Shown: positions 6,983 to 63,226 of the stretch, in pieces | Layout of the letters: each line of letters opens with the position of its first letter | Numbering within the stretch: position 1 is the stretch's first letter | Source: Candidatus Bathyarchaeota archaeon | GTDB taxonomy: Archaea; Thermoproteota; Bathyarchaeia; Bathyarchaeales; Bathycorpusculaceae | Direction: 5' to 3' | Length of the DNA stretch: 64,000 nt | Assembly (NCBI GenBank): GCA_963806535.1 | Contig: CAWDYC010000004.1 | Location: forward strand, 160,001 to 224,000 | Notes under the pieces: model-generated | The model's input: the letters and a program-made list of their open reading frames with translations, nothing else | Database searches by the model: none | What the model was told of the DNA's origin: nothing | Position numbers and translations under genes: made by a program

Positions 6983-6988
6983 TCAAAT

Positions 6989-7303
6989 TTAGTAGTGCAG
7001 TTGCTTTTCTGGCGGAAACAGAAACTTGCGTCTGGTAAAGAACAATACTGTGAAAACGACAAAGAAAACGGCGCCTAAAACTAAATATATAATTCCGTCA
7101 GTGACCTCTTGACCAGCAGTCGTTTCACTAAAGTGAACATACGGATTCGTATGGTCGATAACAACGCCGGTTAACCCATCTGACAATCTCCAAGAACCAA
7201 TTATTAATAATGCCATTCCCCCAATAACCAGCAAGGCAACTGCTACAAGGCCCAAAGGAGTCGGACCCTTGTGAGAATGAGGGAAAGTTGACATGGACAT
7301 CAA
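6989..7303 (-). CDS. Small two-TM membrane protein
   Basis: ORF with two hydrophobic segments. Confidence 0.6.
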   Translation of the reverse strand: MMSMSTFPHSHKGPTPLGLVAVALLVIGGMALLIIGSWRLSDGLTGVVIDHTNPYVHFSETTAGQEVTDGIIYLVLGAVFFVVFTVLFFTRRKFLFPPEKQLHY

Positions 7304-7421
7304 TTGCAGTTTTTAACTTATAAATTTAGCTCAGTCGAACGATTGGCTAAGATATAGCGATAAACGTAAGGCCAAAAGGGTAAAATTATATTTGTTAGTG
7401 TTTCATTATGATGCCCGATAA

Positions 7422-7499
7422 GGGCCCGTGGCGCAGTACGGATAGCGCGTCAGCCTTCTAAGCTGAAAGTCATGGGTTCAAATCCCATCGGGCCCGCCA
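7422..7499 (+). tRNA. tRNA-Arg(TCT)
   Basis: GGGCCCG acceptor stem, anticodon arm TCAGC-CTTCTAA-GCTGA, GGTTCAAATCC T-arm, encoded CCA. Confidence 0.96.
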
Positions 7500-7689
7500 G
7501 AACCCTTTTCTCTTGAAAAGGCTTCACCGAAAACTCGGTGTTTTGGGTGTTGCGGTTGCTTAGTGCTTCTATACAGTCTTTTAACGTGTTTTCTGCGATT
7601 TTTGAGACATTTAAGCCGAGAGAATGCGCCTGATCATACACTGTTTTCGAAATATTCAAGGTAACTCTAACTTTGTCAGATTTAGACGT
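7450..7689 (-). pseudogene. Integrase N-terminal fragment int(N), RHH/CcdA-like start
   Basis: (ACG)SKSDKVRVTLNISKTVYDQAHSLGLNVSKIAEN... reads into the tRNA; probable start codon is ACG after GGTG. Confidence 0.7.
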
Positions 7690-7691
7690 AT

Positions 7692-8507
7692 TTATACACC
7701 CTTTTTGATTTTTTGATTCAAATGTGGATTGAGCATTAAGAAAATCTTAGGATTTTTGTGTTCGATCGCCACAGAAAAATAAAGAGGATCATTCGGGTTA
7801 GTTTCATCGATCCAGGTGTATGCTTTTCTGATCCACTCTGGTTCTTTTCCGTCAACGGCAATGCCGTTATCAGGATCTTTCATAAAATTCTCAATAAAGC
7901 GAAAAGCATTAAATTTCCCAAGCTGCGCGTCAGTAAAATTAATGTTTTCTGGATTAATCTCATAGACTTGTTTTCCGTTTTCGTCAATGATTTTGTTAGT
8001 TGAATTATAAGGTTGAAAGAATTGTACTGCTTCAGAGAATCTTAGACCGGTAATTGCTATAAAATCCATGAAAAGACAGTATTCAGGCCTTGCGTCTTTT
8101 ACCTCTAGGATCCACTGGAAGACGTCCTCTGGATTATCAGTTCTATTCAAACGGTCAATAATAATATCGTCAGCGCTTCTACCGGCCCAGGTTAAACCAT
8201 AATTCTTAATCAACTTAAGATAGCCTTCATAACAACCTAGAAACTTAGCTAAAGCGCTATAGAGACTGCAAGAACTTTTGACTGCATACTCTTAGGCAGC
8301 TGAGTGATTGTGAAAGATCGCTTGATAATAGACAACTTGAATACTTGAAAGCTGAATTGAAAACCTGAGACTCCCATCGAGAACTAAACTCTCTATTCTT
8401 AAGATATTTGCCAAAAGAAACCCAATCTATACCCTTTTCGCCTAAAGAACCTTTTAAATCGGCTTCTAAGCTGAAAGTCATGGGTTCAAATCCCATCGGG
8501 CCCGCCA
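7692..8507 (-). pseudogene. Integrase C-terminal fragment int(C), truncated and fused to an unrelated tail
   Basis: Begins in attR; TGLRFSEA box I motif present; no HxxR or catalytic-Tyr box downstream. Confidence 0.75.
8463..8507 (+). repeat. attR: duplicate of 3' 45 nt of tRNA-Arg
   Basis: CTTCTAAGCTGAAAGTCATGGGTTCAAATCCCATCGGGCCCGCCA is identical to 7455-7499. Confidence 0.95.
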
Positions 8508-8975
8508 ACGTTTCAAGATTGATTGAATTCGAATTAATTTTACTCTTCACTCACGATAGGTGAGAGTCACTTAAGTATCGTGTGATAAAAATAATGTTTG
8601 ATTGAGTGAGAACACTATGGATTCTTGCTCAAATCAGAAGATTGAAGAAAAGCAAAATTAATGTTGCTATAAATACAGCAGCATTTGGGAAGAATAGGGG
8701 CTGAGAAGGCTCTAAATTAGATTCACAATATAACTATAGTTGAAGATTTTGCATTTTCTTCTCCTATAAAGTTTGCAGAGCCTCAGCATACCCTTAGATT
8801 TCTTATGATTTTGAATAGCTATTTTAGGTGAATTGCCTAATTATTTAAAAACAAGTTAAACGAACATTATTTAGAACCTCGCGAGAAATAGTGACTAATA
8901 ATTCGCTAGGCATCACAGCCGCATGTCTTAACTGGTGAGTTAAACACTACTGAAGCATAGGAGCCAAATGAAAAT

Positions 8976-9665
8976 ATGAACATCGACAATCTTATTTGGG
9001 CTTTAGTGGATGCTGTTTCGGCAGTGATTTGCTTCGTTCTTGTCTGGTTTATGACAAAGCCTTACCGCTTTACAGGAGAACGCAAATACATTGGTTTACC
9101 TTTTAGTTTCAGTTTTCTTGGTGCCTCATATGTTATAGGGCTAACTGGTTTCTTACAGTCAGGTGGTTTTGTTGATGTTTTGAGATGGGTTCAGCTATTC
9201 ACACAGTCGTACGCATTTGCATTTCTTGCAGTAACTTATTATTTCTCTAAAAAAGAAAAAGAGACAACTCTGTCTTGGTTTGCTGATTGCTTTTGCAGCT
9301 ATTCTCTCGCTCTGTGTCTCTTACACAGTAATTCTTGTTGCTCCATTGTATGATTTGCCGCATTTCCATACAGTAGATGATTACATGAGAATCTTCAATA
9401 TTGTTTGCTTATCGTACATTGCTATTCACACTTTGAGAAGCCACGCATCTAAGCCAGACGCTAAGACAATTTGGATTCCGCTTAGTTATCTTTTGTTTGA
9501 TTTCGGCCAATATTCTTTGTTGACTTTGGTCGCTTGACGGAAGTTTCACAGCGTTTGTTGGAGCACATTTTTTGAGATTAGTCTGCGTTGTTGGTTTTCC
9601 TATTTGTTGCGTATCAAACATTTTACTCTTCAAATGAATCGTACCCGAGAAAGGGAATTGAATGA
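8976..9665 (+). CDS. Multi-pass membrane protein (sensor-like), frameshifted; 3' end approximate
   Basis: ORFs 8976..9353 and 9280..9537 plus a further hydrophobic segment. Confidence 0.55.
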
Positions 9666-9941
9666 AAAAGATTCCTCGCAGAGATAAGTTGAAAATTTAC
9701 GGAGATCATTCTCTCCATTATTTACAACGAAGCGAGTTATGAAAAAATCGTTCTCAGTCGAATTCAGGTCAAAGCAAATGTTCCTTTTGACCGATTAAAA
9801 AGTTACATCTTTGAGCTCGAAGGTTTGGGTTTGATTCAACAAGAGCCCAGGCTACGGCTGACGGAAAAGGGCAGGCAATACTTGACGGAATATGAGAAAG
9901 TTCTTGAATTCATGAAACGAATGGGTTTGACTTATTTATGA
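9662..9941 (+). CDS. Winged-helix DNA-binding protein, one indel
   Basis: MKKIPRRDKLKIYGD-IL...KANVPFDRLKSYIFELEGLGLI...LTEKGRQYL; not in track. Confidence 0.75.
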
Positions 9942-10016
9942 AGATTGACCGTTGCGATTTTTGAGAGATATAAAATTTATTAATTGATTGCTTCAAAACT
10001 TGTTTTAGGAAAGATT

Positions 10017-10385
10017 ATGGTAGCTAAGAAAAAGATTTAAAAATGTAGATGAATACATCGCTACTTTTCCCAAGAATGTCCAATTAATTTTAGAAGAAGT
10101 CAGACAAGCAATCAAGAGAGGCAGCACCTGAAGCGAAAGAAACTATTAGCTATCAAATGCCATGCATTCGAACAAAATGGTATTTTGGTGTGGTTTGCAG
10201 CATTCAAGAGATCATATCGGTTTTTTTCCTAAAGTTTCTGCTATTGAAGTCTTCAAAGAGAAATTGTCTTCCTATCAAACAAGCAAAGGTACAATCCAGT
10301 TTCCAATAAATCGAACCAATTCCACTTCGATTTGATAAAGGAAATTGTAAAGTTTAGAGTTAAGGAAAACACTCCTAAGAAGTGA
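10017..10385 (+). CDS. YdhG-like DUF1801 family protein, frameshifted
   Basis: VDEYIATFP, ETISYQMP, HIGFFP, TSKGTIQFP segments across frames. Confidence 0.8.
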
Positions 10386-10581
10386 TTAGCTCATTAAGAT
10401 GCGCTTTATCTTCGCAAGAGTAATAACATAACACTTATACCCACAAATAAGAAAACTTGTCAATCAAATCTATTACCTGCTTATTTCACAATTAGGGATT
10501 AAAATGATATAAGAAAGACCCATCCCTTAGAGATTATATTCCAAAATATAAATCGAAGTTTATCGGGAGCGCTAAAGAAAA

Positions 10582-11793
10582 ATGCAATATAGAACGGTTC
10601 CAAAAAATGGAGACAAATTATCTGTTTTAGGGTTTGGCACTATGCGTCTACCACAGAAGTCTCTAAAGATTGATGAAAATCGGGCAATAAGCCAGATACG
10701 CTATGCAATTGATAACGGCGTTAACTACGTAGATACTGCTTTTCCTTATCACGCTGGAGAAAGCGAAAAGTTAGTTGGAAAAGCGCTGCTGGACGGTTAC
10801 CGGGAAAAAGTGAAAGTTGCAACCAAATTATCGCACTTTATGATAAACAAACCTGAGGACATGGATAAATTTCTCAGTTTACAATTAGCTAAACTTCAAA
10901 CTGACCACATTGACTATTACTTGCTTCACTCGCTTGACGCAGAAGCATGGAATAAATTACAAAGCTTTAACGTTTTAAGTTTCCTTACGAAAGCAAAGGC
11001 AGAGGGAAAAATTGTCAATATGGGCTTCTCTTTTCACGGTTCACGCTCAACATTCAAAGAAATCATAGATTCAAACGACTGGACAATGTGCCAAATACAA
11101 TACAATTTTCTTGACGAAAACTTGCAGGCAGGAACTGAAGGTTTGCGTTATGCTGCTTCAAAGAGACTCGCAGTTATGGTGATGGAGCCACTTAGGGGTG
11201 GCGCATTAGCTGGTAAACTTCCCAAAGAAGTTAAACAAATTTATGATAACTCTCAAACTGGCAGGACGGCTGCAGAATGGGGTCTTCGCTGGGTGTGGAA
11301 TCATCCCGAAGTAACGGTTGTTCTTTCAGGGATGAACGATGAAAAACAAGTTCAGGAAAACATAGAAACAGCAGAAACAGCCCTTCCTTATTCGCTGAGT
11401 CAAAATGATCTTTCAGTCATAAGTAATGTGGCTGGTTGTTACAAACGCCTAATGAAAGTTCCTTGCACAGGCTGCGCTTACTGCATGCCATGTCCAAACG
11501 GAGTAAACATTCCCGCCAACTTCAACATGTACAACCAATACCACATGTTCGGAAACAAGATATACACAAGAGGATTTTACGCGGTAATGCTTATGGGAAT
11601 AATGCATGGCGAACCTGCTGATGCGTCACTTTGCAAGAACTGTGGCGTATGCGCTAAAAAATGTCCTCAACACATAGCAATTCCAGATGAGCTTAAAGCT
11701 GTAAAAGGTAGCTTAGGAGGGCTTCAAACAAAAATCATGCTTCCTATCATAAAACAGGCGGCGAAGCGGCAATTCAAGGCAAAACTTGAATAA
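10582..11793 (+). CDS. Aldo/keto reductase with C-terminal 4Fe-4S motifs
   Basis: LGFGTMRLP, YVDTA, MEPLRGG, CTGCAYCMPCP, CKNCGVCAKKCP. Confidence 0.9.
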   Translation: MQYRTVPKNGDKLSVLGFGTMRLPQKSLKIDENRAISQIRYAIDNGVNYVDTAFPYHAGESEKLVGKALLDGYREKVKVATKLSHFMINKPEDMDKFLSLQLAKLQTDHIDYYLLHSLDAEAWNKLQSFNVLSFLTKAKAEGKIVNMGFSFHGSRSTFKEIIDSNDWTMCQIQYNFLDENLQAGTEGLRYAASKRLAVMVMEPLRGGALAGKLPKEVKQIYDNSQTGRTAAEWGLRWVWNHPEVTVVLSGMNDEKQVQENIETAETALPYSLSQNDLSVISNVAGCYKRLMKVPCTGCAYCMPCPNGVNIPANFNMYNQYHMFGNKIYTRGFYAVMLMGIMHGEPADASLCKNCGVCAKKCPQHIAIPDELKAVKGSLGGLQTKIMLPIIKQAAKRQFKAKLE

Positions 11794-11810
11794 AAAAATC
11801 AGGGCATTCC

Positions 11811-12872
11811 TTAAGATTTACATTTTGGCTGTTGTTGCGAAATACAGTGAATTGCACCAAACCCGCAAATCAAATCAACAGAATCCACGCCGACAACTTT
11901 TCTTTTCGGGAAAAGCTTTTTCAGAATAGACAACGCTACTTGTCATTTTTTGATCTAAAGGTCGGCACCAAAACTGTTTTGTTGCCTATGTAAAAGTTTG
12001 TGTAGCTTGCGGGAAGGCGTTTTTTGTCGCATTCAACATTTCCAGGCATCGGCAACTTGACAATTTTTAATTTTTTACCGTCTTGGTCGGTGGATTGGCA
12101 TAGTATTTCATAATTTTTTCTTAGCGCTTCTGCATTTTCGTCGTCGCCTTCATCATAAGCGCAGACAACAGTCGTTGGATTAACGAATCGTGCAAGGTCG
12201 TCAACGTGACCGTCTGTGTCATCTCCTACAATGCCACATCTTAACCAGATAATGTGAGTTACACCCAAATAATCTCGCAAGAATTTCTCGATTTTTTCTT
12301 TTCCAAGCTGAGCATTCCTGTTTTTGTTAAGTAGGCACTGCTCGGTTGTAAGCAAGGTTCCTTTTCCATTAACATCAATGGAGCCGCCTTCCAAAACTAT
12401 GCCTGGTTCAAAACAGTCCAAATGCATTGCTTTGTTTATTACCTGAGGAATCTGTGCATCTTTTAGCAGATTCTCATATTTTTCTCCCCAAGAATTAAAA
12501 ATCCAGCGTACCATCGCCAATTTTTGCTCTCTGTTCATAACAAATATGGGACCATAATCTCGGAACCAAACATCAGCATAATCAAATTCGAAAAAACGTA
12601 TTTTATTTAAATCAATGTTTCTTTTCTTAAACAGAACCTGTTATTTTTTGCTTCATGTCTGCATCTTTGACGAAAAGGTTAACGTATTCATCTTTGTGGA
12701 TTAATTCTATAATTTGAAGAAAAGTTTCTTCGACTTTTTCGACGCCTGTTGTGAAAGTTGTGGGGTCATGTGGCCACGCTAACCAGATGGCTTCATGCTT
12801 ACTCCATTCAGGTGGCATGCAGTATCCTAGTTCACGGGGGGTTTTGCCTGAAAAACAATCAACATTCGTCAT
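11811..12872 (-). CDS. aguA: Agmatine deiminase, frameshifted
   Basis: [42 protein letters not shown]. Confidence 0.9.
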
Positions 12873-44156: not shown

Positions 44157-45023
44157 ATGAATAGACGTGAATTCATTAAGATTGGCGCGGCAGCCGCTAT
44201 TGGTGTCGGAGTTGCAAGCGCAATTGAAATTCCAATTTTAGAGAATTCAATTAATAATGATAACAATAAGGTTAAACAACTGCAAAGCCAGATAACTCAA
44301 GGTCAGGGAGTCTTTTTAACTTTAAACGCTGTTGAACAGAAAAAAGTTGAAGCATTGGCTGAAGCAATAATTCCAACGGATAGCAATGGTCCCGGTGCAA
44401 AAGAAGCAGGAGTAATCTATTTTATCGATCATATGTTAGCGGGAAATTATGGTAAGGGCGGTAATATGTTTCTGCAGGGTCCATTCGTAATTCCTCAATC
44501 TGGATCGGTTACAGTTATGGGTGCGATTTATCCAACTGAAACAAAAAGTGCCATTACTTATTCAGGCGGCACGCTAAAGCCTGGACTGCAGGCAGGTACG
44601 GCGTACCAATATGCATTTAATCCACGAGAATTCTGGCGTCGAGGACTAGTTTTTCTTGAGAATTACTGTAAGGCCGCAAAAGGTGGAACTTTTGAAACTC
44701 TTTCTTCTGCTATTCAAATAACGGTGCTTCAAGAGTTATTCGATAATAGCTCAAGTAATACTGCGTTGCAATCGGCTTTTCAGGGTCCAAATGCAGCAGA
44801 ATTCTTTAATGATGTACATGACCTAGTCACTGCAGGCTTCTGGGCTGATCCAATTTACGGTGGAAACCAAGGTATGGTGGGTTGGAAACTGGTAGGTTTT
44901 AATGCTAATTATTGGGGAGATGACATAGGTTTGGGTGCAAGAAAGTTGATGGTTGCAAGCACACCTACCCCATTACCGCCCAAGAGTTTGGGTGAACTTC
45001 AAAAAGAAGGCGGAGGACTATAA
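44157..45023 (+). CDS. Gluconate 2-dehydrogenase subunit 3 family protein with Tat signal
   Basis: MNRREFIK; IIPTD..PGA.EAGV..FID; ADPIYGGN.GM.GW. Confidence 0.85.
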   Translation: MNRREFIKIGAAAAIGVGVASAIEIPILENSINNDNNKVKQLQSQITQGQGVFLTLNAVEQKKVEALAEAIIPTDSNGPGAKEAGVIYFIDHMLAGNYGKGGNMFLQGPFVIPQSGSVTVMGAIYPTETKSAITYSGGTLKPGLQAGTAYQYAFNPREFWRRGLVFLENYCKAAKGGTFETLSSAIQITVLQELFDNSSSNTALQSAFQGPNAAEFFNDVHDLVTAGFWADPIYGGNQGMVGWKLVGFNANYWGDDIGLGARKLMVASTPTPLPPKSLGELQKEGGGL

Positions 45024-45024
45024 A

Positions 45025-46857
45025 ATGTCAAATGTAGTTACGCATCCACAAACTGATGTCGTGGTTTGCGGATTAGGTCATATGGGTGGTCCAATAGCTG
45101 CAGAGGTTACTGCAGCAGGATACCAAGTTGTTGGAATAGAAAAAGGGCCTTTCTGGGATTTCACCACTGACTGGAGACAAGACAACAAAGACGATGAATG
45201 GGCAATAGCAGTAGAACGTAAGTTTGATCATCCACTTTACATTTCCACTTTTTCACTTCGAAATAATATCAACCAGTTCGCATTGCCAATAAGACGATAC
45301 ACTAAAAATGTACAGTACCATGCGTTAGGTCATGCAGTAGGCGGTGTCGGCACACATTATGGCGGTGGTTTAGGAAGATTTTCACCATGGTCATATCAAC
45401 CAGTTACGATGACGAAGGCGAAATATGGGGATGCTGGGTATGCCACAATTTTAAGTAATGTGAAAGGCGGTACTCCGGACTTAGAAGACTGGCCAGTTAC
45501 GTATGATGAAATGGTTCCCTATTATAATTCTTGGGAGAAAGCCATCGGTGTGGTAGGCAACCAGCAGACTGGTCAAGATCCATTTATACCGAATGCTAGA
45601 TTCCCTATGCCACCTCATCCGACTACACCGTATGCCACAATTTTCAAAAATGCCGTACAAAGCTTAGGATATACTCCTTTTGACACCGTTAGCGGTTTGA
45701 TTAGTGGCGGATACACAAATCAATATGGCATATCAAGGACCGGCTGTGTTTACTGTGGTTGGTGCGCTGCAAAATGCAACTATCCTTGTGAAGTGGGAGC
45801 AAAAAGTAGCTCTCATGTTACAACAATTCCGGCTGCGGTCAAAACTGGCAAATTTGATATGCGCCTAGAATCATACATTTATCGCATTGATACTGATAGC
45901 ACTGGAAAAGCCACTGGAGTTAGATATTATGATGCTTTGGGTCAAGTGCATGTGCAGCCTGCAAAAGTAGTGTTCAACGGATTATGGGGATTTAACATCA
46001 TAAGATCCATGCTTCTATCCGGGATAGGCGTACCATATGACGCAGTGAAACACACGGGGTCTTTAGGAAGAGGGTTAGCAAACGGCTACACTCCTAGTAC
46101 GTCAAGTGCGAGCGTCAAACTAAACGTAGGAGCAAACGCCTATGTAAGTGGAAACGGAGCTGGCGGCGGATACAACATAATGGACCTCAACGAAGTTAAC
46201 CCGAAATTTAGCCACGCAGATGACTTGACTTTTATGGGCGGAGTCAACTTAGGGTTTGGAACTTATTTGGGAAGCGGTCCAAGCACATTTTCCGGTCATT
46301 TGCCTAGTAGAACTAGCTTTGGAAGCGCATGGAAAGCAACCCTCAAAGACGAAAAGTTGATTAAAAACGTTACAGCAACTCTTTCTGGTACAGGACCGAA
46401 TTTACCGCTTCTTGAGAACTACGTGGATTTAGATCCACATTATAATGACATATATGGTGATCCTGCTGCCCGAATCACCTTGGACTGGGATGCAAACACC
46501 TATCGAGTATCAAATTACTTGGTAACCAAAACGAAACTTATCACCGATATTCTCGGCAAGATGGGTGATCCATCAACAGTAAAGGTAAATGCAGTTCCAG
46601 AACTTTCGCAACACGTAGACTGGTGGGGACACCACCAGAGAGGAGGCGCTAGAACAGGCGCAAACCCAGCAACTTCAGTATTCAATAAGTGGATGCAATG
46701 CTGGACCAGCGAAAATTTGTTTGCTGCAGGCGAAATCTGTGACACTTTCGGAGATAACTTAACTGCAGGAACTCATGTTGCAGGAGCTATGGCTTACTTG
46801 GCGGCAGACGGCATAAAGAAATACTTAGCAAGTCCGGGACCACTAATTACTCCATAA
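45025..46857 (+). CDS. GMC-family flavoprotein (gluconate 2-dehydrogenase alpha-like) with Fe-S motif
   Basis: GxG Rossmann fold, GG..THY, DWP.TYDE, CVYCGWC....C, H..GGAR.G. Confidence 0.85.
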   Translation: MSNVVTHPQTDVVVCGLGHMGGPIAAEVTAAGYQVVGIEKGPFWDFTTDWRQDNKDDEWAIAVERKFDHPLYISTFSLRNNINQFALPIRRYTKNVQYHALGHAVGGVGTHYGGGLGRFSPWSYQPVTMTKAKYGDAGYATILSNVKGGTPDLEDWPVTYDEMVPYYNSWEKAIGVVGNQQTGQDPFIPNARFPMPPHPTTPYATIFKNAVQSLGYTPFDTVSGLISGGYTNQYGISRTGCVYCGWCAAKCNYPCEVGAKSSSHVTTIPAAVKTGKFDMRLESYIYRIDTDSTGKATGVRYYDALGQVHVQPAKVVFNGLWGFNIIRSMLLSGIGVPYDAVKHTGSLGRGLANGYTPSTSSASVKLNVGANAYVSGNGAGGGYNIMDLNEVNPKFSHADDLTFMGGVNLGFGTYLGSGPSTFSGHLPSRTSFGSAWKATLKDEKLIKNVTATLSGTGPNLPLLENYVDLDPHYNDIYGDPAARITLDWDANTYRVSNYLVTKTKLITDILGKMGDPSTVKVNAVPELSQHVDWWGHHQRGGARTGANPATSVFNKWMQCWTSENLFAAGEICDTFGDNLTAGTHVAGAMAYLAADGIKKYLASPGPLITP

Positions 46858-46886
46858 ATTTTCTCTTCTATTTTGAGCGCTATTCT

Positions 46887-47468
46887 ATGAGTATAACAAG
46901 CGATGATTTTTGGAAACAATTTAGTAACTTTGTAAGTGTAATTCCAAAACAATATCTAGATACATTATTGATTCTACATCAGAAATTTGAAGGTAAAGAC
47001 ATCAAGTGGGTAGTAAGCGGCGAGTTGGCTGAACTCCTAAGAATAGTTAAAGTTGAACCTGACTGTATAGAAATTGTAACGTCCAAAGCTGATGCTCAAA
47101 AGATTTTTGAATTAGTCCAAGAATTTAAGCCTAGACAAATCGCTTTTCAAACATTATGTCTCTCAAGAAATGCTGAAGTTGATAGAAAAGAGTACCCTGT
47201 TTCTGTAAGAAGCTTCTATTTCGATTTTAACATAACAACTGTTAAAGTTAAGGTTGAAGGGGACTTGCAGTTTAAAGTTGGCGACTGGGAGTGGGGCGAC
47301 GTTTTAGAATTTACTCCCGAATATGTTTACGTCGTAGGCAAAAAAATAGCAGTAACACCTCTCCTAATTGCATCTGATTTATACCAGAGTCTTGGATGGT
47401 TAGATAGGGTCAAAAAAATAAATGATGTCACCCAAAAATTGCATGCCCTAAAAAGACCGGCTAAATAA
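46887..47468 (+). CDS. Hypothetical protein, degenerate nucleotidyltransferase-like
   Basis: WVVSGELA...EPDCIEI resembles GS...DxD with substitutions. Confidence 0.55.
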   Translation: MSITSDDFWKQFSNFVSVIPKQYLDTLLILHQKFEGKDIKWVVSGELAELLRIVKVEPDCIEIVTSKADAQKIFELVQEFKPRQIAFQTLCLSRNAEVDRKEYPVSVRSFYFDFNITTVKVKVEGDLQFKVGDWEWGDVLEFTPEYVYVVGKKIAVTPLLIASDLYQSLGWLDRVKKINDVTQKLHALKRPAK

Positions 47469-48349
47469 AAATGAGCTTGTCAATAATTAGGGCAACCATT
47501 AAGCAGCCCAAGTAGGGCATTGAAGCAACAAACACTTTGAACCCATGAGCTTCGGAAGCGCCAAGTATTAATCCTCGGTTTTGAAAAAGAAACGCTAGCT
47601 CCTGCCGCAAAAGCCACAACCAGATAAACGGTCCCCGTTAAATGTGACAGCGGTAATAGAAATGAGAAAGCAACAGTAAAAACATTCAACAAGAAAACTA
47701 CCTTAGAAGCTTTGCTTATGCCTTCTGTAACAGGTAACATTGGAATTCCAGCATTCTTGTATTCCTTTACCTTTTTGATGGCGAGTCCCCAAAGATGCCC
47801 AGGTGTCCAAAGAAAATCCAGCATTGCAACAAGCAAAGGCATTAAACTTAGTGTGTTTACGGCAGCTGTCCAACCCGAAAGTCCGGCAAAACAACCCGCA
47901 AAACCACCTATGACAACGTTCCAAGGGCTGATGCGTTTTAGCCAAACAGTATAAATGACTAAGTAAAAAACTGTTCCAAGACCAATCATCAAGACAGTCA
48001 GCGTGTTAAAGAATAAGTATGAGAAAACCACGCTTGATGCTATCATTAGTATGCCAAAAGCCATTCCCGTTTTGGGCGAAACGTTTCCTGATGGGATTGC
48101 TCTTTTTGAGGTGCGTGCCATTAGCTTGTCGATGTCTTGGTCGTAGACGCTATTTAGGACGCCGCAACCGCCTGCTGCCAAGTAACCCACGATGCTGAAT
48201 ATTGCCAACTTGAGCAAGTTAACTGTTGGGAAGGCTGCGAGAACAAAGCAGGTGATGCCTACAAGTAAATTTAAGAGGGTAACTTTTGGCTTTGTAAGTT
48301 CAAGATAATTGCTTATTTTTTGTTTCAAGAACCCACAAACCTCTTGCAC
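47461..48349 (-). CDS. ctaB: Protoheme IX farnesyltransferase (heme O synthase)
   Basis: ELTKP, DxDIDxLMxRTxxR.IP, YTVWLKR, WTPGH. Confidence 0.92.
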
Positions 48350-48363
48350 TTTAAACGAAATAC

Positions 48364-48642
48364 TTATCCTCCCATAGCCATTGAAAATGCCGCTGAAATT
48401 CCAAGTAAAGCAATACCTACAATTGCTGCCAAAGGCAAAACAGCAAGTCTCCATGACTCAAAACGCAAATGCTGATAGTATAATGCAATAAAAATTGCTT
48501 TGGCAGAAGAAATTAAAAGTATTGTTAAAGCAAGCAACGAGGCTGCCCCCGGCAATGAACGGGTTACAACTTCCATAATAGTTGCTACTACAAGTCCAAG
48601 CCAAATTCCAACATACAGTTTTATTCCAGGCATATTTTTCAC
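48364..48642 (-). CDS. coxD: Heme-copper oxidase subunit IV
   Basis: KAIFIALYYQHLRFE; three TM helices. Confidence 0.8.
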   Translation of the reverse strand: MKNMPGIKLYVGIWLGLVVATIMEVVTRSLPGAASLLALTILLISSAKAIFIALYYQHLRFESWRLAVLPLAAIVGIALLGISAAFSMAMGG

Positions 48643-49415
48643 CTAAATTAAATAGAATAGTGGAAAAAGAAACATCCAGACAACATCTACAAAATGCCAG
48701 TATAAGCCGACATTCTCGACTCCGGAGTGCTTCGAACTTGTGAATCCTCCACTGAAAGCTCTAATCATAAGGTATGCAACGGCAATCATACCAGCTGCCA
48801 AATGAACAGCATGAACCCCAGTTAGCACATAATATGTTGAGCCAGGTAAGCCGCTGTTTATCGTAAAGCCATTGCGGATAAGTTGAGGCCATTCAATTCC
48901 AAGTTTAATTGCTAGGAATGCTGCACCTAAAGCAAATGCGCTCGCTAACCCAATTTTTAAGCCAGTAGTATTACCCGTTTTTATGGAGTAAAGTGCTAAC
49001 ACCATTGATAAACTGCTTGTAAGTAGAATTATTGTGTTAACCATCCCTAGAATCACGTCATGTGTTTGAGCGGCAATGGGCCATGAGTTGCTGCCTAGTC
49101 GGACATAAACATAAGCTGCGATTAATGATCCGAAAACCAAAATTTCAGAAGTGAGGAAAACCCAAACGCCAATTTTCTCCCCGCCAGAATGTTCAAGCGG
49201 CCAGGTTTCTCCCAATGATCTCTTTTGTCTTGCTGAATTTTTCTTCAGATCCATCTTTGAAAACTTTCAGAAGAGCTACGGCTACTATTATGAGACCTGC
49301 TACGAATAATGGAATGTAAATTACCAGTCCTAAGAAGCAGAATCGCGATTCCTACTGAGATTATAATCGGCATAAAACTGGATTTGCCTTTAGACCCCTC
49401 ATATTCTTCCGTCAT
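48643..49415 (-). CDS. coxC: Heme-copper oxidase subunit III, frameshifted
   Basis: WVFLTSE, NTIILLTSS, TGVHAVH, YWHFVDVVW. Confidence 0.9.
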
Positions 49416-51009
49416 TTTTGGATCTCCTTCTGAAATCTTTGTATTGTCTATTGTACCAGGAAGTTTTTCCGGATCTTCAGTTGACGCTTCCTGATCTGTT
49501 GCTAAGTAGTTGCCTGTCCACTCCATTTCTTTTGCGTTCCATGGATTTGCATTTGCTTCGGATGGTGCCTTCCTGAGGCTAAAAACAAGGTTTAATATGG
49601 CAAGTAAGAATGCAGGTCCAAATATGTACGCGCCAATGGTTGCAGTTAAATTGAGAGATGCCAACCCAGAGGTAATGGTGAAAGTGTCTACTCTTCTGGG
49701 CATATCAATCATAAAGAAGTAGGGGAAATAGAGAATGTTGAAGCCTATGAAAGAGGCTGCAAAAGTGATTATGCCGATTGTTTCGTTGTACATTCGTTTA
49801 GTTATTTTTGGCCACCAATAATAGAGTCCCGCAATAAGCGCAAACAATGTGGTTCCAGCCATAACATAGTGGAAGTGACCTACAACCCAGTAGGTTCCAC
49901 GGAAAGCATAATCTAAAACTGGAAAAGCTTGCAAGAACACCTGTGATTCCGCCAAGAGTTACTGTGAATATGGCTGCTAAACAAAATAGAAAAGGGGTTG
50001 TAATTTTTATTCGGCTTTTATAAAGCGTTAGAACTAAGCCGATTACTACTCCTTCAAACGGAATTGAAATAGCTAGTGTCGTTATTGAGAATGATTGAAG
50101 CAAAGTATAGTTTACGCCAGTCGTAAACATATGGTGCATCCAAACGTCCACACTCAGAAATGTTACTGCTCCAAGCTCAAAAAGAAAAGCTGTTCTTGCG
50201 AACAATCCCCTTTTTGCCGCGGTCATAAAAACTTCAGCAATTATGCCAATTGCGGGTAAAACAACTATGTAAACTTCTGGATGACCGAAGAACCAGAAAA
50301 GAAGATCCCATAAAATGCTTCCACCTACTGTTGAACTAAAGAAGACAGTACCCAAGATCCTGTCGGAGGTCAAAAGTAATGCTCCGGCTGCTAACGTGGG
50401 AAACGCAAAAAGCATCAACGCCATCGTCATCAGTATTGACCAAGTGAAAATCGGAAGCCGTTTCCATGTTACTCCTTTTGCTCTGTTTCTCACGATTGTT
50501 GTGATGAAGTTGATCGAGGACATAGTGACTGAAACAGCTAAAAGGGCTAACGCCAATATGGCAAGTGTTGTTCCGGATTGAGGACTGAATTGTATAGTGT
50601 TTAAAGGTGCATAAAGTGTCCAGCCTGTGTCCGCTCCTCCTCCAGGAAGAAATACTGAACCAACAAGGAGAATGCCGCTGAAAAGATATGTGAAGTAGCT
50701 CATGGCATTCAAACGTGGAAAAGCAAGGTCTTTTGAGCCGATTTGGAGCGGCACGATGTAGTTTGCTAATCCAACGCCGAGAGGAGAAAGAACCCAAAGA
50801 ATCATTAAAAGACCATGTAACGTGACAGTTTCAGAGTATTGAAAGGGACCAAGGAAATTGTTGTTGGGCACAGCAAGCTGTGTTCTCATCATTTCTCCAA
50901 ACGAGCCTGCTACCACTAGGAAACCCACTGCCGTTACAATGTAGAGAATGCCTACTTGCTTGTGGTTGGTGGTGCTTAGCCATTCTTTAAGTGAAAATTT
51001 TAGTTCCAT
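49412..51009 (-). CDS. coxA: Heme-copper oxidase subunit I (A-family, GHPEVY), frameshifted
   Basis: HG, DLAFPRLN, GWTLY, WFFGHPEVY, VWMHH, HFH, MPRR. Confidence 0.93.
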
Positions 51010-51013
51010 TTTT

Positions 51014-51689
51014 TTAGCCTCCTGCTGCGAGTTATTGGCTGTTTGGTTGCTGAGCCATTGGTTAAAAGCAGATGAACTCAGCACTGTCATAGTTGCACCC
51101 ATGTAGGTGTGTCCAGCGACCGCAGAGTTCTTTGCAAACGATTTGGTAATCAAGTGTGCTGTTTCCGTTCACCGATGGTGTCGTAACCCAAATCACATTG
51201 TATCTGCCAGGTATGGCGTCAATGCTTACCCTGTACTGCACCAAGTAAAAGTTATGCATGACATCAGTGCTGGTAACATTAAACATTACGGTCGTGTTTG
51301 CATGGAAGATAAAGTTGCTTTGTTGAATTAGCCCCATTAGGATATTCGAACCTGAAATCCCACTGATAAGCTGTGACTCCTATAACTAAGCTTTGAGAAA
51401 CAGACGGTTCAAATCTAACGTTTGGGCAAATTCTCTCCTGCATTACAGTTAGACTGAACAAGATAATAATTGAGATAGTCGCGAAAATGATTGCATCTCT
51501 TGCCCGGCTTTTGGACAACCCTCTTTCGGGAATAAATCTTGGCTGTCCTTTCTTCTCGCGATATTTTATTGTAAAAACAACCATTGTAACAATAACAACC
51601 GCCAATGCTACTATCGCTATGGCTGCGGCTAGATTGAAGAAGTTGTTCCAATCTATTGCCGAGGATGGCATTGGTTGTGACATGGGCAT
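51014..51689 (-). CDS. coxB: Heme-copper oxidase subunit II with CuA site, frameshifted
   Basis: Two TM helices, QW, DVMH, CKELCG-GHTYM. Confidence 0.88.
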
Positions 51690-52003
51690 AACCTTTTCGA
51701 TTTATGTTAAAAAATCAGAAGAGAAAAGAAAAAGGGCATTTTCTGATTGATGCACTTATCCTTCTTGCTTCATTCTGAATTTTTTCCTAAAGTGATTAAA
51801 TAATACTCGGACGCTTGACTGTTTAAAGTTGTGTGGGTTGCCATTATACAGTCACAAGTTAGCGATTGGCAAAAACGCATAAAATTAGTTGTTCTAAAAT
51901 ATTATCGCAGTAAGAGTATTGCCTCAAATCAGTAACGATGGATTGATTAAGCACCTCGAGGTGAAAAGCTTAATCTATCCTCGAACGAAAGGGCGAACAG
52001 CTA

Positions 52004-53572
52004 ATGGCCAGTATAGAACTCGTCATATCAGCATTTTTGCTTATGACTTTCATAGCTGCGCTTATCTCAATTCGAGTCAAGATACCTTACACTTTAGTTT
52101 TAGTTTTTATCGGTGTCTTGATTAGTATAATTGTAGCTTTTCTTTCTGTTCAGGGAGGCCCGCTTCAGAATCCAATGCAAAGTGTCTCTTTGGAAATTCA
52201 ATCTATTTACAATCAGTTAATCCAAGGAGGTGGCGGCGGTCTCTTCGTAGGTTTAATTGTTCCTCCCTTAATTTTTGAAGCGATGATTCACATCCGAGGA
52301 GGCGACTTGAAGGCGGTAATTAAGCCTTCTTTGGCGCTAGCAACAGTTGGCGTTTTGGTCGCAACTGTAGTTGGAGGCTTGATTTTATGGAAATTTGTTG
52401 GGCTTACACCTTATGTTTCATTCCTATTTGCGGCGTTAATTGCCCCAACAGATGTAGTGACTGTTCTAGAGGTTTTTCGACGCGTGAAAGTACCATCCAA
52501 ACTGTCAACACTTTTGGACACTGAGGCAGCCTTCAACGATGCCACAGCCATTATAATTTTTACCATAATACTCTCGTCTATAGGAATGCAGCAAATAACA
52601 TTGGTTGGTTCATTCTTGAGTTTTGGGTTTACGTTAGGGGCAGGAGTCTTGATTGGCTTGGGTGTTGCTTTTGCTGGTGAAGTCCTATCAAGCTTAATTG
52701 AGGACAGAGTCGCTGAAACCATACTAACAATCGTAGTCGTTTACGGCTCATATGCGCTTGCTGCTGGCATTGGTGCATCTGGACTTATCGCGGTAGCTGT
52801 TGCAGGATTATACTTTGGCAACAATACAATTCGAACTGCAATGGAGCCGGCGACGAGAGAGGCAGTTACAATCTTTTGGCAAATAGCTGCTTTTCTGGGT
52901 AACTCGGTTGCTTTTCTACTCATAGGATTCCAAGCAAACATTATAACTAATTTTCCACAGTCACTTATAATCATAATCGCTGCCTTCGTTGCCGTAACTG
53001 CAGCCAGAGCCGCAACAGTATATCCCACATTTGCTGTCTTCAGAAAAATAGGCGGAAAAATGTCCAGGGTTTGGGCTAATATTGCTATGCTTGGTGGAGT
53101 AAGAGGTGCGCTTTCAATAGCGCTTGCAGCCACAATTACTACTTCAGCAGTAATTTCTCAAACCGACTTACACACAATAAACACTATGGTCTTTGGCGTA
53201 GCTTTCATCTCAATTATGATTCAAGTGCCTCTTTTACTCCGATACGTAAGACGTAAAATGCCTGATACTGATGCTTTTAAAGAAACGGAACTTGATGAGC
53301 AATTTGCCCAAATATCTAAGACTATGGAAGAAGTGCATCGGTTAAAGTCCGAAGGCAAAATCTCTGATAAAGAGTTTAATGAAAGATTAGAAGAAAGTAG
53401 AATGGAAATAGACAAGCTGATGACTAAATCTCATGCTACCCTTGAGACGCGGAAGATTATTCAAGCAAGAGCATCTATTCTCTTTCCTTCTATTCAAAAG
53501 AGGTTCAAACGCAGACAAGAATTAGAAGAAACAAACAAAGAATCAGATCCTGAGAAAAAGGCAGATTCTTAA
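52004..53572 (+). CDS. Na+/H+ antiporter, CPA1 family
   Basis: PPLIFE, APTD, EAAFND, GGVRGA. Confidence 0.9.
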   Translation: MASIELVISAFLLMTFIAALISIRVKIPYTLVLVFIGVLISIIVAFLSVQGGPLQNPMQSVSLEIQSIYNQLIQGGGGGLFVGLIVPPLIFEAMIHIRGGDLKAVIKPSLALATVGVLVATVVGGLILWKFVGLTPYVSFLFAALIAPTDVVTVLEVFRRVKVPSKLSTLLDTEAAFNDATAIIIFTIILSSIGMQQITLVGSFLSFGFTLGAGVLIGLGVAFAGEVLSSLIEDRVAETILTIVVVYGSYALAAGIGASGLIAVAVAGLYFGNNTIRTAMEPATREAVTIFWQIAAFLGNSVAFLLIGFQANIITNFPQSLIIIIAAFVAVTAARAATVYPTFAVFRKIGGKMSRVWANIAMLGGVRGALSIALAATITTSAVISQTDLHTINTMVFGVAFISIMIQVPLLLRYVRRKMPDTDAFKETELDEQFAQISKTMEEVHRLKSEGKISDKEFNERLEESRMEIDKLMTKSHATLETRKIIQARASILFPSIQKRFKRRQELEETNKESDPEKKADS

Positions 53573-53621
53573 GATTTATGGTGAATTTTTTAAAGAAAAG
53601 AACCGAATTATAATTTTGGAG

Positions 53622-54158
53622 TTAAGGAGTTACTATGAAGTTGCCCCACATCCCCAAAGTTACATGTGCATCCAGTTGGCAAATATAGTAGTATGTTCCC
53701 GCTTTGTTCGCCAAAAAAGTCGTTGACCCTTTTTCTCCTGCAAGAACTGGGTTGCCTACTGAAGCAACCTGGGCTTTGCTGAAGGCTAGATTGGTATTTC
53801 CAGAGGTTTTCTGAGTAACTAAAGCCCAATTATGCGGCATGGTTCCTGAATTAGTAAAATCAACCGTGACAGTTGTTCCCGCTTTAACGGTGAATGTTGG
53901 TCCAGGCGAAGTTATGTAACCAGAAGTATTTCCAAATCCATAATTCGATGAACTTAGTTCACCCGCAAAAACGGTTATAGTTACGCTTCCTGCCGAGGGT
54001 GACCCTGAAGATGATGGCGATTCGATTGGCGACGGGGCGCCAGAGTTGCCGATTTGGGTAAGTTGGTATGTGAAAGCACTTGAGATGATAATGATAGCTA
54101 TGATAGCTGCTGCTGCAATGTACCAAGCGGTATTGCTGATTTTTTGAGGTTGACTCAA
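53622..54158 (-). CDS. Membrane-anchored blue-copper cupredoxin (sulfocyanin/halocyanin-like)
   Basis: N-terminal TM, S/P linker, PHN, YYYICQLDAHVTLGM (type 1 Cu ligands H,C,H,M). Confidence 0.88.
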   Translation of the reverse strand: MSQPQKISNTAWYIAAAAIIAIIIISSAFTYQLTQIGNSGAPSPIESPSSSGSPSAGSVTITVFAGELSSSNYGFGNTSGYITSPGPTFTVKAGTTVTVDFTNSGTMPHNWALVTQKTSGNTNLAFSKAQVASVGNPVLAGEKGSTTFLANKAGTYYYICQLDAHVTLGMWGNFIVTP

Positions 54159-54301
54159 ACTATATGTTTCTCCCTAAAAATAAGTCGCTAAAATACTAAA
54201 TTCAAAATAAGAGAAAGCGAGTTTTAACTCTTTTGGTTGCCTAAAACAACCGCATGCTTTAAGTCAGAATATTTATTAGAAAATCACTAATTAAGTAATT
54301 A

Positions 54302-54766
54302 TTGGTTGAAATCTTGTTTTTGTTTAATTTAATTGCTTTGCATGCTGGAACACCAGTGGTTGTTTCCCAAACAACATTAACCGCAATGTTTGTCGTTTTA
54401 GCGATTATTTTGATTGGGATAGGCTTTGGTCGTGTGTCAAAAAATAGAGAAAGTCTTCTTTTGCATAGATGGAGCATGTCAGTTGCTGTTGCGTTGTCCT
54501 TTATGGCAATTCTTTTAGTTATGCTACCAACTGCCTTTAACTTTTATATAGACCCTGACCTGCAGTTTTTCTCGTCCCTTTCTCTCTTCACTTTTATTCA
54601 CTTGGTGATAGGGGTATTCGCTATATCCTTGGGCTTGATTTACGCCTTTGGTGATTTGCCGCAAAAGCTCAGGCGGTGGATGCGTTGGACAGCCATTTTT
54701 TGGGTAGTAAGCCTTGCTTTAGGAACAATAGTGTTTTTAGAAATGTTAGGGTTATTGCCGTTTTAA
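54302..54766 (+). CDS. DUF420-like membrane protein
   Basis: Four TM helices with HRWSM and IH conserved His pattern; next to the oxidase cluster. Confidence 0.55.
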   Translation: MVEILFLFNLIALHAGTPVVVSQTTLTAMFVVLAIILIGIGFGRVSKNRESLLLHRWSMSVAVALSFMAILLVMLPTAFNFYIDPDLQFFSSLSLFTFIHLVIGVFAISLGLIYAFGDLPQKLRRWMRWTAIFWVVSLALGTIVFLEMLGLLPF

Positions 54767-54780
54767 CTATTATTTTCATC

Positions 54781-56342
54781 TTATTTCTTATGAAATTTTG
54801 GAATCTCTTTAGAAATTAACAACTCATCGATCCGCAGCATAAGTGAGGAAACCTCATAAGCTCTCCTAATTACTGAACGTTTAACTTTAAGAGGTTCCTG
54901 GCAGACCATTTCGCCGCAACTTTGTTCATTTACGCCATAGTTGATATTCCGTCAGCATGAAGATGTTTCAATTCAATTAGAGTGTCAATTGCGTTTAAGC
55001 CATAGTTTTCCGCTAAACATCTTGGAATTTCCATTAATGCTTCACCAAATGCTTCAATCACAATTTGTTCCCTGCCTGCAAAAGCTTTGGCGTACTGTTT
55101 CAATTCTTCTGCAATATGGGTTTCAGCTGCTCCACCACCCGGCAAAACCCTGCTGTCGTCACCCAAGATTTTCAGGACTGTTAGGCTATTGCGGATTGCA
55201 GTTTCCAGTTCATCAATGGTTTGCGATGTACTTCCTCTAAGCATGAAAGTTGCTCCTGTACACCCTTGGAACGTCACTGTTTTTTCAAGCTCTATTTTGC
55301 CCGTATATAGTTCATCGGCAATGCCTAAGATCTTCTTCAGTAATGTCATTGAGTTTCGCCACAATTTTAGCACCAGTAGCCTTAGCGACAGCCTGCGTAT
55401 CTTTTTTGTCAACTTTTTCGAGAGCAAAAATTCCATTAAAAAGCAATTTATCTTTCAAGCTCTCATCAATTGGTTGCTCACAGAGCAAAACATTTGCTTT
55501 TAGCTTAATCATCTTTTCTAAAGCTTCTGATCTTAGCCTATCTTCAGTTTCTTTGTACTTTCTCATTTGATCTGCAGTTTGAATGTTCAATTTGATTTGT
55601 GGTGGTCCATCATTTTTCATTTTAACATCTAATCGGTTTATGCCTGGTCTTTCGCTGGTAATTGCAATGCGAAGATTTTTCAGTTTATCAGGCATATTCG
55701 GATGGGCTTTTTCTTTTTTGATAACTACACCTTTGATGAGGTTTGATTCTTGGATACTGCCGCCTGGCTTCTTCAAAAACCCAATATTATCTTTGTCAAA
55801 TCTGCCATCGACTGAAGCCAAGGAATATGCTTCCATTATCATTGAGCGCATCTGAGGCGTCAATAGGCCTCGTTTGCAATCTACAGTGTCTAAAACTTCG
55901 GCTGTTTATGCCTGTTTTGAACAATTGCTTGTTTTTCCATTATTTCTAATGCCTTATTTGATGCTAAAAAATAACCGTGAATGACTGTGTTAGCGTGAAT
56001 TTTCATGGAGAAAAGCTCATCTGCTTTCTTTAGCAGAGCTGACAAGAGCACGACAAAAGTTGCTACTCCATCGCCTGCTTCTTGACGCTGCATTTTAGCT
56101 GACTCTGCAATTATTACGGCTGGAGGATATTGAATTGCAAGCTCATCCAAAATAGCAATAGCGTCCTTAGTGACTTTCACAACCTGTTCGGGTCCACGGT
56201 TGTAGCTGACTAGTTTGTATGCTCCCTTCGGACCCAAAGTGCTTCTGATTTTGTCAGCTGCAAAAATGGCTAAGCGCAAGTTTTCGCGCCAAACATCTTT
56301 TCCAGTTGTCCGCTTATAGTTTGGGGAAATTACTTTTTCCAT
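54781..56342 (-). CDS. Divergent group II chaperonin (thermosome-like), frameshifted
   Basis: STLGPKG, GDG, KKPGGS, LRG, PGGGAAE, LAENYG, LRIDE. Confidence 0.85.
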
Positions 56343-56439
56343 TATGTTCACAAGTCTGCGCATACTTGCTTAGCTCTTGGCACTCTTAAAACTAAGTGGT
56401 TGTAGCAACACAGCAACAATTTTTAAAGAACTAGTTAGA

Positions 56440-61731: not shown

Positions 61732-63226
<1,495 letters not shown>

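Follow-up and report, generated by a model that had tools for sequence, protein, structure and literature searches.

The 64,000-nucleotide stretch of DNA analyzed here (hereafter the window, G000:C4:160001-224000) belongs to a 2.95-Mb, 12-contig genome of a Candidatus Bathyarchaeota archaeon (G000; 91.75% complete, 3.41% contaminated), and between its positions 44157 and 54766 lies an island of genes for a flavoprotein dehydrogenase with a twin-arginine translocation (Tat) signal, a blue copper protein (cupredoxin), and an A-type heme-copper oxidase. We lean, with confidence only slightly better than even, toward the interpretation that this island would encode a short chain, for respiration or O2 scavenging, that works at the outer membrane surface of the cell and does not depend on quinone. 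The observations behind this proposal are the identities of the gene products, their cofactor motifs and topology signals, a neighborhood that is conserved among relatives, and a genome that has none of the usual complexes for feeding electrons to an oxidase.

A conserved neighborhood

A scan of species-representative genomes with a profile of the catalytic subunit, a flavoprotein of the GMC family (here GMC), returned 52 loci, 39 of which are of Bathyarchaeia type by similarity and context and 13 of which are from Nitrososphaerota; neighbors were counted in the 27 Bathyarchaeia-type and 8 Nitrososphaerota loci in which each flank extends for 7 kb or more. Near GMC in the 27 full Bathyarchaeia-type loci are the genes for the small subunit of the dehydrogenase (G2DH3, 27 loci), a conserved 193-residue protein (p193, 27), a cupredoxin (26), heme O synthase (CtaB, 25), oxidase subunit I (CoxI, 23), and a DUF420-like protein (21), with CoxI missing from L038, L040, L042, and L055. 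An arrangement that recurs in 23 of 27 loci is not a product of chance, and the co-occurrence of dehydrogenase, cupredoxin, and oxidase in other metagenome-assembled genomes (MAGs), which a preliminary description of this DNA had named as a check on its proposal that the dehydrogenase is wired through the cupredoxin to the oxidase, was found when we looked for it. The neighborhood is common to two GMC clades that are ~50% identical, each with Nitrososphaerota sister branches in the GMC tree, and it has been kept through rearrangement in L025. As an independent case, at one locus of a Nitrososphaerales MAG (L061), the genes run G2DH3-GMC-CoxII-CoxI/III-CoxIV on one strand with small gaps. Three genomes that have no island (G030, G087, and G008) share the ATP synthase B/D and Usp genes; the flank downstream of the island does not appear in them within 13 kb, and they thus do not define a clean insertion site.

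The family as a whole comprises 332 genomes, and the genus of G000 holds 119 other species genomes. The GMC clade is present in 37 family genomes, COX1 in 58, and cytochrome b in 27. Two classes can be told apart among the COX1 matches. One is the A-type found in the window, which scores ~420-460 bits or is found as fragments on the contig that carries GMC; the other, at ~265 bits, turned out to be a cbb3-type oxidase accompanied by CcmF and by a fusion of FixO with cytochrome c. This second class occurs in ~20 of the 332 genomes and not in G000, and cytochrome c is itself unusual in Bathyarchaeia; for example, a locus from the same genus (L027; G014:C1:944000-963900) encodes at 6610-12549 a CcmF-family protein, CcoN, a fusion of FixO with a di-cytochrome c, FixP_N, and a hemerythrin. 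We tallied GMC against the A-type oxidase by hand across the 332 genomes, as a description rather than a statistical test: where GMC is present, the oxidase is present in 32 genomes and absent from 5, and where GMC is absent, the oxidase is present in 7 and absent from 288. Of the 39 genomes with the A-type oxidase, 22 carry GMC without cytochrome b, 6 carry cytochrome b without GMC, 10 carry the two together, and 1 (G237, 71% complete) has neither; that is, 38 of 39 have the dehydrogenase, cytochrome b, or both.

The dehydrogenase

As judged from its sequence, the dehydrogenase is an alpha-gamma pair like the FAD-dependent glucose dehydrogenase (FAD-GDH) of Burkholderia and the fructose dehydrogenase (FDH) of Gluconobacter, without a cytochrome c subunit. 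The true start of G2DH3 is that of a twin-arginine peptide at 44157, with R3 and R4 invariant in all nine aligned sequences; the gene is single copy in the genome, and homologues of TatA and TatC are encoded at C4:520771-522115. The hydrophobic stretch of the signal, followed by a short coiled-coil-like linker, may act as a membrane anchor. In one relative (G077; L038:8631-8972), TatA lies directly upstream of G2DH3, and there the oxidase operon is gone and the cupredoxin and DUF420 genes are kept. The preliminary description spoke of a sugar-acid dehydrogenase; that label, like "gluconate 2-dehydrogenase," comes only from the name of a Pfam family and does not show the substrate.

The catalytic subunit has 610 amino acids and starts (45025) two bases past the preceding stop codon. 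Its Pfam scores (GMC_N, 20.6 bits; GMC_C, 24.0 bits) fall slightly below the cut-offs, and a search of the PDB with a profile built from seven homologues gave seven matches, all of them large subunits of direct-electron-transfer (DET)-type FAD dehydrogenases (E = 1.8e-19 to 3.3e-15): the large subunit of Gluconobacter FDH (7w2j/8xcm) and the alpha subunit of Burkholderia FAD-GDH (6a2u/8hdd). The GxGxxG-type N-terminus is invariant among the seven aligned homologues, as are four cysteines, C241, C247, C251, and C255. Three of these (C241/C251/C255) align with the 3Fe-4S ligands Cys212, Cys218, and Cys222 of the Burkholderia enzyme, in agreement with the earlier labeling of this flavoprotein as an Fe-S protein; the fourth, C247, sits within a 4-residue insertion, and the type of cluster is not readable from the sequence. 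In the Burkholderia enzyme, according to PMC6719666, a surface 3Fe-4S cluster takes electrons from FAD and passes them to a tri-heme cytochrome c subunit, and the gamma subunit serves as a Tat "hitchhiker."

The third gene of the module, p193, is a presumed accessory gene of the dehydrogenase: it adjoins GMC in 27 of 27 full Bathyarchaeia-type loci and in 3 of 8 full Nitrososphaerota loci. It has no match in Pfam, and NCBIfam holds no family for it, for G2DH3, or for GMC. An AlphaFold2 (AF2) model of p193 (predicted local distance difference test, pLDDT, 89.5) gave 2ewr/2fcl as the best Foldseek matches (E = 1.9e-13; template modeling (TM) score 0.83 on the target; 23% identity), and of the usual carboxylates of the acidic motif, just E62 is invariant.

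Copper proteins and the oxidase

The ligands of the island cupredoxin (H109, C160, H165, and M170; His-Cys-His-Met) are invariant in 11 of 11 sequences. A second cupredoxin of G000, at C5:108312-108875 (L092:2313-2876, minus strand), has a signal peptide and a C-terminal anchor. In the cupredoxin tree, an "inside-operon" clade, whose members lie between CoxIV/III and CtaB in 18 of 18 cases, stands apart from a second family, which has members next to CoxII/DUF420, members next to p193/G2DH3, and, in genomes that have no dehydrogenase, members that follow CtaB. The window has a gap of ~36 nucleotides between CoxIV and CtaB (48328-48364) at the place where 18 related loci have a cupredoxin gene of ~490 nucleotides; this gene is kept in the closest relative (L032), and in the window it was deleted or lost in assembly. 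Another locus (L068:23-1048) encodes a single protein, truncated where the contig stops, in which two or three cupredoxin domains, if not more, are arranged in tandem. Its gene immediately precedes G2DH3-GMC and is read in the same direction; the genome is 99% complete and has no COX1 match.

An A-type oxidase is recognized by the histidines that bind heme and CuB and by the glutamate motif of helix VI, all in subunit I, and by the Cys/His/Met ligands of CuA in subunit II. In the window, the CoxI motifs are legible across the two frames of its gene, and the CuA motif of CoxII is legible across a frame shift and intact in relatives. An intact CoxI orthologue scores best on TIGR02891 (563.7 bits, below the equivalog cut-off of 670.75), and a CoxII orthologue reaches 145.0 bits against TIGR02866, for which the cut-off is 147.7. 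There is one COX1 locus in the whole of G000. Some relatives have a CoxI+III fusion (G027, L061); an in-frame CoxII-CoxI fusion that is apparent in the window was rejected, the two genes being separate in relatives.

What makes the hemes of this oxidase? An intact CtaB orthologue scores 245.5 bits on TIGR01473 (cyoE_ctaB), above the cut-off. The CtaA model (PF02628) matches none of the 332 family genomes, G000 included; the same search misses the control Sulfolobus acidocaldarius, and thus the model may not see archaeal forms. There are 39 family genomes that carry CtaB and an A-type oxidase, none of them with a COX15/CtaA match. The DUF420-like protein, which is often present in two copies (e.g. 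L022), is a candidate for the missing CtaA step. Its gene neighbors the oxidase in 21 of the 27 full Bathyarchaeia-type loci, and two of its histidines, H55 and H100, do not vary among the 8 sequences aligned; its AF2 model (pLDDT 61.6) is too poor for fold comparison, and a profile search of PDB sequences gave chance-level matches only. By analogy with CtaM, for which a role in oxidase biogenesis is described in PMC9145763 and PMC8239418, the DUF420/CtaM-like protein is likely an oxidase biogenesis factor.

Usual feeders not found in the genome

The preliminary description reported no CxxCH cytochrome c, Rieske/cytochrome b, or heme A synthase gene within the cluster, which is correct, and for cytochrome c, its maturation factors, and Rieske-cytochrome b, none was found in the whole of G000 either. 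The CcmF/CcsA family (PF01578) has no match in the genome, and there is no open reading frame (ORF) with multiple CxxCH motifs; a single CxxCH occurs in 41 of 6754 ORFs, none of which we judged to be cytochrome-like, and the CcmF and CcoO/P proteins of relatives have no tblastn match. Searches of the whole genome likewise found no cytochrome b (PF00033, PF13631), no cytochrome bd, and no NrfD-type anchor. Of the four Rieske matches in G000, the three clear ones were examined and are ~110 amino acids long with no adjoining cytochrome b; the fourth is weak. The three UbiA-family genes of G000 are CtaB and two that are DGGGP-synthase-like, and no quinone prenyltransferase was recognized among the genes of the genome.

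G000 does have an 11-subunit Nuo-like cluster (G000:C8:18542-28289; L091) with A, B, a C/D fusion, H, I, J, K, L, M, and N, from which NuoEFG are missing. An N-terminal CxxC...H motif retained in the NuoD-like part recalls NiFe hydrogenases; we considered a hydrogenase and rejected it, as the large subunit scores as NuoD/FpoD. The genome also encodes the acetyl-CoA synthase CdhC and 2-oxoacid:ferredoxin oxidoreductases (G000:C7:202808-203272; C11:147290-148018), and thus keeps the oxygen-sensitive core of an anaerobe.

An alternative feeder in relatives

Two relatives, G016 and G092, have a three-gene operon for a Tat-Rieske protein, cytochrome b, and a cupredoxin, with UbiE-like and UbiA-like genes alongside. 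The gene order in G016 is S19e, ferredoxin, Rieske, cytochrome b, cupredoxin, UbiE-like, Lrp-like, UbiA-like, YhbY, and Rpr2; at the same site in G000, on the contiguous 402-kb contig C5, the order is S19e, the lone second cupredoxin described above, YhbY, and Rpr2. Because the absence of a bc-type complex is seen at this intact S19e-YhbY/Rpr2 locus, it is not an assembly gap, and a tblastn search of G000 with the proteins of the relatives' operon yields just cupredoxins and b5-like domains. We take the cupredoxin at the end of the cytochrome b operon to mean that, in this family, the oxidase receives its electrons from copper proteins. The Rieske proteins of these relatives (L096:6422-7378 and L098:4895-5848) have an odd architecture, with a cytochrome b5-like domain ahead of the Tat signal.

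A proposed chain and its main alternative

We propose that a Tat-exported, membrane-tethered alpha-gamma flavoprotein, with FAD and a surface Fe-S cluster, would oxidize an extracellular sugar or alcohol and would pass single electrons to the membrane-anchored type-1 copper protein or straight to CuA; the reason to look to one of these two acceptors is that the dehydrogenase has no cytochrome c subunit, and the direct option is suggested by the gene arrangement in L061. Electrons would then enter the CuA site of the A-type oxidase, which is probably proton-pumping, for the reduction of O2. CtaB and the DUF420/CtaM-like protein would assemble the oxidase, and p193, with its nucleotidyltransferase fold, would act as a cytoplasmic accessory of the dehydrogenase. 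Each of the electron-transfer steps, the nature of the substrate, and proton pumping are things that we infer.

We also put forward, tentatively and as a possibility that we hold to be less than even, a fuller version of this proposal. An otherwise anaerobic, acetyl-CoA-synthase-bearing Bathyarchaeon would have, outside of the quinone pool, a complete chain from an FAD/Fe-S sugar dehydrogenase via blue copper to a proton-pumping A-type oxidase, and would use it to gain energy or to clear O2 through the incomplete oxidation of plant sugars in micro-oxic peat or soil. The module would be interchangeable with the Rieske-cytochrome b-cupredoxin feeder of sister species, and the hemes of the oxidase would be made without a recognizable CtaA, possibly by the DUF420-type protein.

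What if the genes travel together and are not wired together? The island could be a co-inherited "oxygen island" in which the oxidase is fed by an unrecognized membrane donor, for example a Nuo-linked one, and the dehydrogenase donates electrons to O2 or to a soluble quinone or humic compound, or takes part in AA3-type GMC lignocellulose chemistry. We regard this explanation as the less likely one, and a number of observations favor it or count against a direct link. The A-type oxidase occurs without GMC in 7 of 39 genomes (G237, G100, G103, G092, G098, G016, and G144), and GMC without the A-type oxidase in 5 of 37 (G077, G009, G132, G249, and G252), two of the latter being 95% and 99% complete and having no COX1 of any kind. 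At seven of the eight full Nitrososphaerota loci, the G2DH3-GMC pair lies beside major facilitator superfamily (MFS) sugar transporters, with no oxidase or cupredoxin nearby. In the window itself, the dehydrogenase genes converge on the oxidase operon and hence are not co-transcribed with it. The idea of an exclusive cupredoxin partner for the dehydrogenase had to be rejected, since the cupredoxin subfamilies do not co-vary exclusively with it, and the Nuo-like complex in the genome means that an unrecognized membrane feeder could exist. Moreover, the co-occurrence counts overstate the case for a link because adjacent genes are co-inherited and relatives are not independent, and the oxidase genes are frameshifted in this assembly of a genome that is 91.75% complete.

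Against the explanation without wiring, the predicted Fe-S exit cluster points to a dehydrogenase with another protein as its electron acceptor rather than to an oxidase, and no candidate membrane donor was found in G000. Additionally, six of the seven genomes with the oxidase and no dehydrogenase have the Rieske-cytochrome b-cupredoxin operon that G000 is without, and in L061 dehydrogenase and oxidase genes form a single-strand operon. The wiring put forward in the preliminary description, for which comparative genomics gives good support, survives in part: the host, the integrity of the contig, the missing cytochromes, and the co-occurrence all stand, and the exceptions in 7 of 39 and 5 of 37 genomes speak against an obligate link between dehydrogenase and oxidase.

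Broken reading frames

The preliminary description missed that several of the oxidase genes are broken in this assembly. When intact orthologues are aligned by tblastn, CoxII spans three frames, with shifts at ~51300 and ~51115, the latter within the CuA motif; CoxI spans two frames, with a shift near 49905-49925 at what the junction sequence reveals to be a T run; the N-terminal helices of CoxIII lie in other frames, the G029 orthologue giving three frames; and CtaB spans two. In total there are ~6 frame changes across CtaB, CoxIII, CoxI, and CoxII, and the frames of G2DH3, GMC, p193, the CPA1 antiporter, the cupredoxin, and the DUF420-like gene are intact. The thermosome gene next to the island (54784-56363) is in four tblastn pieces, i.e. 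three frame changes.

Are these breaks real? If they were, the oxidase of G000 would be a decaying pseudogene cluster, and just the dehydrogenase, cupredoxin, and antiporter would be functional. The concentration of frame changes in four oxidase genes next to six intact island genes is in keeping with decay, as are the junctions that lie outside of homopolymers, the missing cupredoxin between CoxIV and CtaB, and the loss of the oxidase from the relatives L038, L042, and L055. We nonetheless consider decay improbable. When intact ORFs of relatives were mapped onto the whole of G000, 38 frame changes appeared over 16,766 aligned residues, genes matched by several relatives being counted more than once, and 8 of 23 genes outside of the island are split, on contigs C3, C5, C6, C9, and C10 and elsewhere on C4, including those for the thermosome, ATP synthase B, and MetX. 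Relatives with low contig numbers (L026, L031) show like damage at other positions, the oxidase genes are unbroken in G012, G029, G010, and G027, and the heme, CuB, CuA, and type-1 copper ligand motifs are all still legible despite the shifts. Because the same damage is found genome-wide and, at different places, in L026 and L031, we read the breaks as assembly indel errors, at a rate high enough to affect any gene call in G000.

Layout and host of the island

Every gene of the earlier inventory was recovered by ORF listing and Pfam scans (Table 1). G2DH3, GMC, and p193 lead on the plus strand, CtaB, CoxIV, CoxIII, CoxI, and CoxII converge on them from the minus strand, and beyond CoxII follow a CPA1 antiporter, the membrane-anchored cupredoxin, and the DUF420-like protein. 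The antiporter is a lineage-specific insertion rather than a conserved member of the island: among the 52 related loci, just L032 and L039, the closest relatives of the window, were seen to have it, between CoxII and the cupredoxin.

Table 1. Genes of the island, with positions in the window
Gene product	Position	Strand	Evidence
G2DH3, small "hitchhiker" subunit, Gluconate_2-dh3 family	44157..45023	+	PF13618, E 1.2e-26; weak TAT_signal match
GMC-fold FAD dehydrogenase catalytic subunit with Cys-rich putative Fe-S loop, no signal peptide of its own	45025..46857	+	Weak Pfam GMC_N/C
p193, conserved 193-aa cytoplasmic protein, TM1012-like nucleotidyltransferase fold	46887..47468	+	AF2 model and Foldseek
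Heme O synthase CtaB; frame change near 47595	47461..48328	-	PF01040, E 1e-49
Oxidase subunit IV (CoxIV)	48364..48642	-	PF03626, E 1.8e-10
Oxidase subunit III (CoxIII); intact main part 48643-49254	48643..49415	-	PF00510, E 2e-27
A-type heme-copper oxidase subunit I (CoxI); one frame change	49245..51009	-	PF00115 in two pieces, 317.5 + 92.3 bits
Oxidase subunit II (CoxII) with CuA site; two frame changes	51016..51689	-	PF00116 on middle piece
CPA1 Na+/H+ antiporter	52004..53572	+	PF00999, E 3.3e-49
Type-1 (blue) copper protein, N-terminal membrane anchor, Ser/Pro linker	53622..54158	-	PF00127 and PF06525, above cut-offs
DUF420/CtaM-like four-helix membrane protein	54302..54766	+	PF04238, 29.7 bits (cut-off 30.5)

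The host is Bathyarchaeia-like, as had been proposed: genomes of the same genus are named Candidatus Bathyarchaeota archaeon, and an archaeal 16S gene lies at 61732-63226 on the same contig, 7 kb from the island. It is a soil archaeon, from a group generally taken to be anaerobic. GMC sequences 60-94% identical to that of the window also occur on records of Acidoferrum, Deferrimicrobium, Sulfotelmatobacter, and Nitrososphaerales MAGs (L035, L043, L052, L083, and L057), and these bacterial- or Nitrososphaerales-labeled contigs are probably binning errors in their records. A chimeric contig or an island mis-binned from another organism, which the preliminary description had named as a refutation and which near-identical islands on records labeled as bacterial MAGs (L035, L043, L052, and L083) might bring to mind, is very improbable, as the GC content is even (0.41-0.42) across the 588-kb contig C4, the 16S gene is close by, A-type ATP synthase genes on one side and the thermosome on the other flank the island, both flanks are syntenic with the same gene order in independent assemblies, and the "bacterial" records are short contigs, of which L052 bears a thermosome of archaeal type, and two others, L035 and L083, fall within the Bathyarchaeia group in the tree or match it at 88-94% identity.

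Relation to known systems

That soil Bathyarchaeia can have such an oxidase is already known. Cytochrome c oxidases have been published for the genus Houtuousia (PMC10321748; reviewed in PMC12694404) and a coxAC-coxB-coxD oxidase for the Gagatemarchaeaceae (PMC10640624), so that A1-type oxidase genes of soil or peat archaea are already on record. G000 resembles these archaea in its oxidase and is unlike Houtuousia, which is said to lack both, in that it retains CdhC and 2-oxoacid:ferredoxin oxidoreductases. Keyword look-ups in the three papers gave no mention of a dehydrogenase or cupredoxin feeder, and a literature search that did not extend to supplements found no published description of a dehydrogenase-cupredoxin-oxidase link, nor of such a module alternating with a Rieske-cytochrome b-cupredoxin operon; it is the link, then, that we have not found in print.

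If our proposal is correct, at least 32 of the 332 family genomes conserve a self-contained dehydrogenase-copper-oxidase chain, a respiratory design without quinone, bc complex, or cytochrome c. Such a chain would show how lineages of this kind exploit or survive oxygen at oxic-anoxic interfaces, and it would mean that the flavoprotein dehydrogenases used in biosensors for "direct electron transfer" have a copper protein as a partner in nature. The alternation with the Rieske-cytochrome b-cupredoxin operon in sister species represents a ready comparative test.

Among known enzymes, the closest parallels to the dehydrogenase are the FAD-GDH of Burkholderia cepacia (gamma-alpha-beta; 6a2u, 8hdd) and Gluconobacter FDH (7w2j, 8xcm), with which it shares a GMC-fold FAD subunit with a Cys-rich loop, three cysteines of which align with the 3Fe-4S ligands. 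It also shares with them a Tat-signal small subunit (PF13618) and a catalytic subunit that has no signal peptide of its own (PMC6719666). Unlike these enzymes, it has no tri-heme cytochrome c beta subunit, either in the island or in the genome, and its Cys loop has a fourth invariant cysteine in a 4-residue insertion. The pair in the island is, furthermore, accompanied by a nucleotidyltransferase-fold gene, cupredoxins, and a CuA oxidase, and its sequence similarity to the known enzymes is low.

Cupredoxin-linked chains are familiar in archaea from Sulfolobus SoxM with sulfocyanin, from haloarchaeal halocyanin, and from the plastocyanin-like proteins of Nitrososphaeria. The island would be like these in having a membrane-anchored type-1 copper protein in the place of cytochrome c as the donor to a CuA oxidase; it differs in that G000 and 21 other genomes have no detected Rieske/cytochrome b, which leaves as the sole candidate reductant a dehydrogenase of soluble type that would sit on the outside of the membrane. 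For a dehydrogenase that reduces a copper protein directly, the precedents are bacterial: methylamine dehydrogenase with amicyanin, and aromatic amine dehydrogenase with azurin. In each, electrons go from a dehydrogenase in the periplasm to a cupredoxin of its own, without passing through quinone. Those enzymes use tryptophan tryptophylquinone (TTQ) cofactors and hand electrons on to c-type cytochromes, whereas the island enzyme would use flavin and Fe-S and has no cytochrome c. What the island would share with them is the pairing of a periplasmic-type dehydrogenase with a dedicated cupredoxin and the bypassing of quinone.

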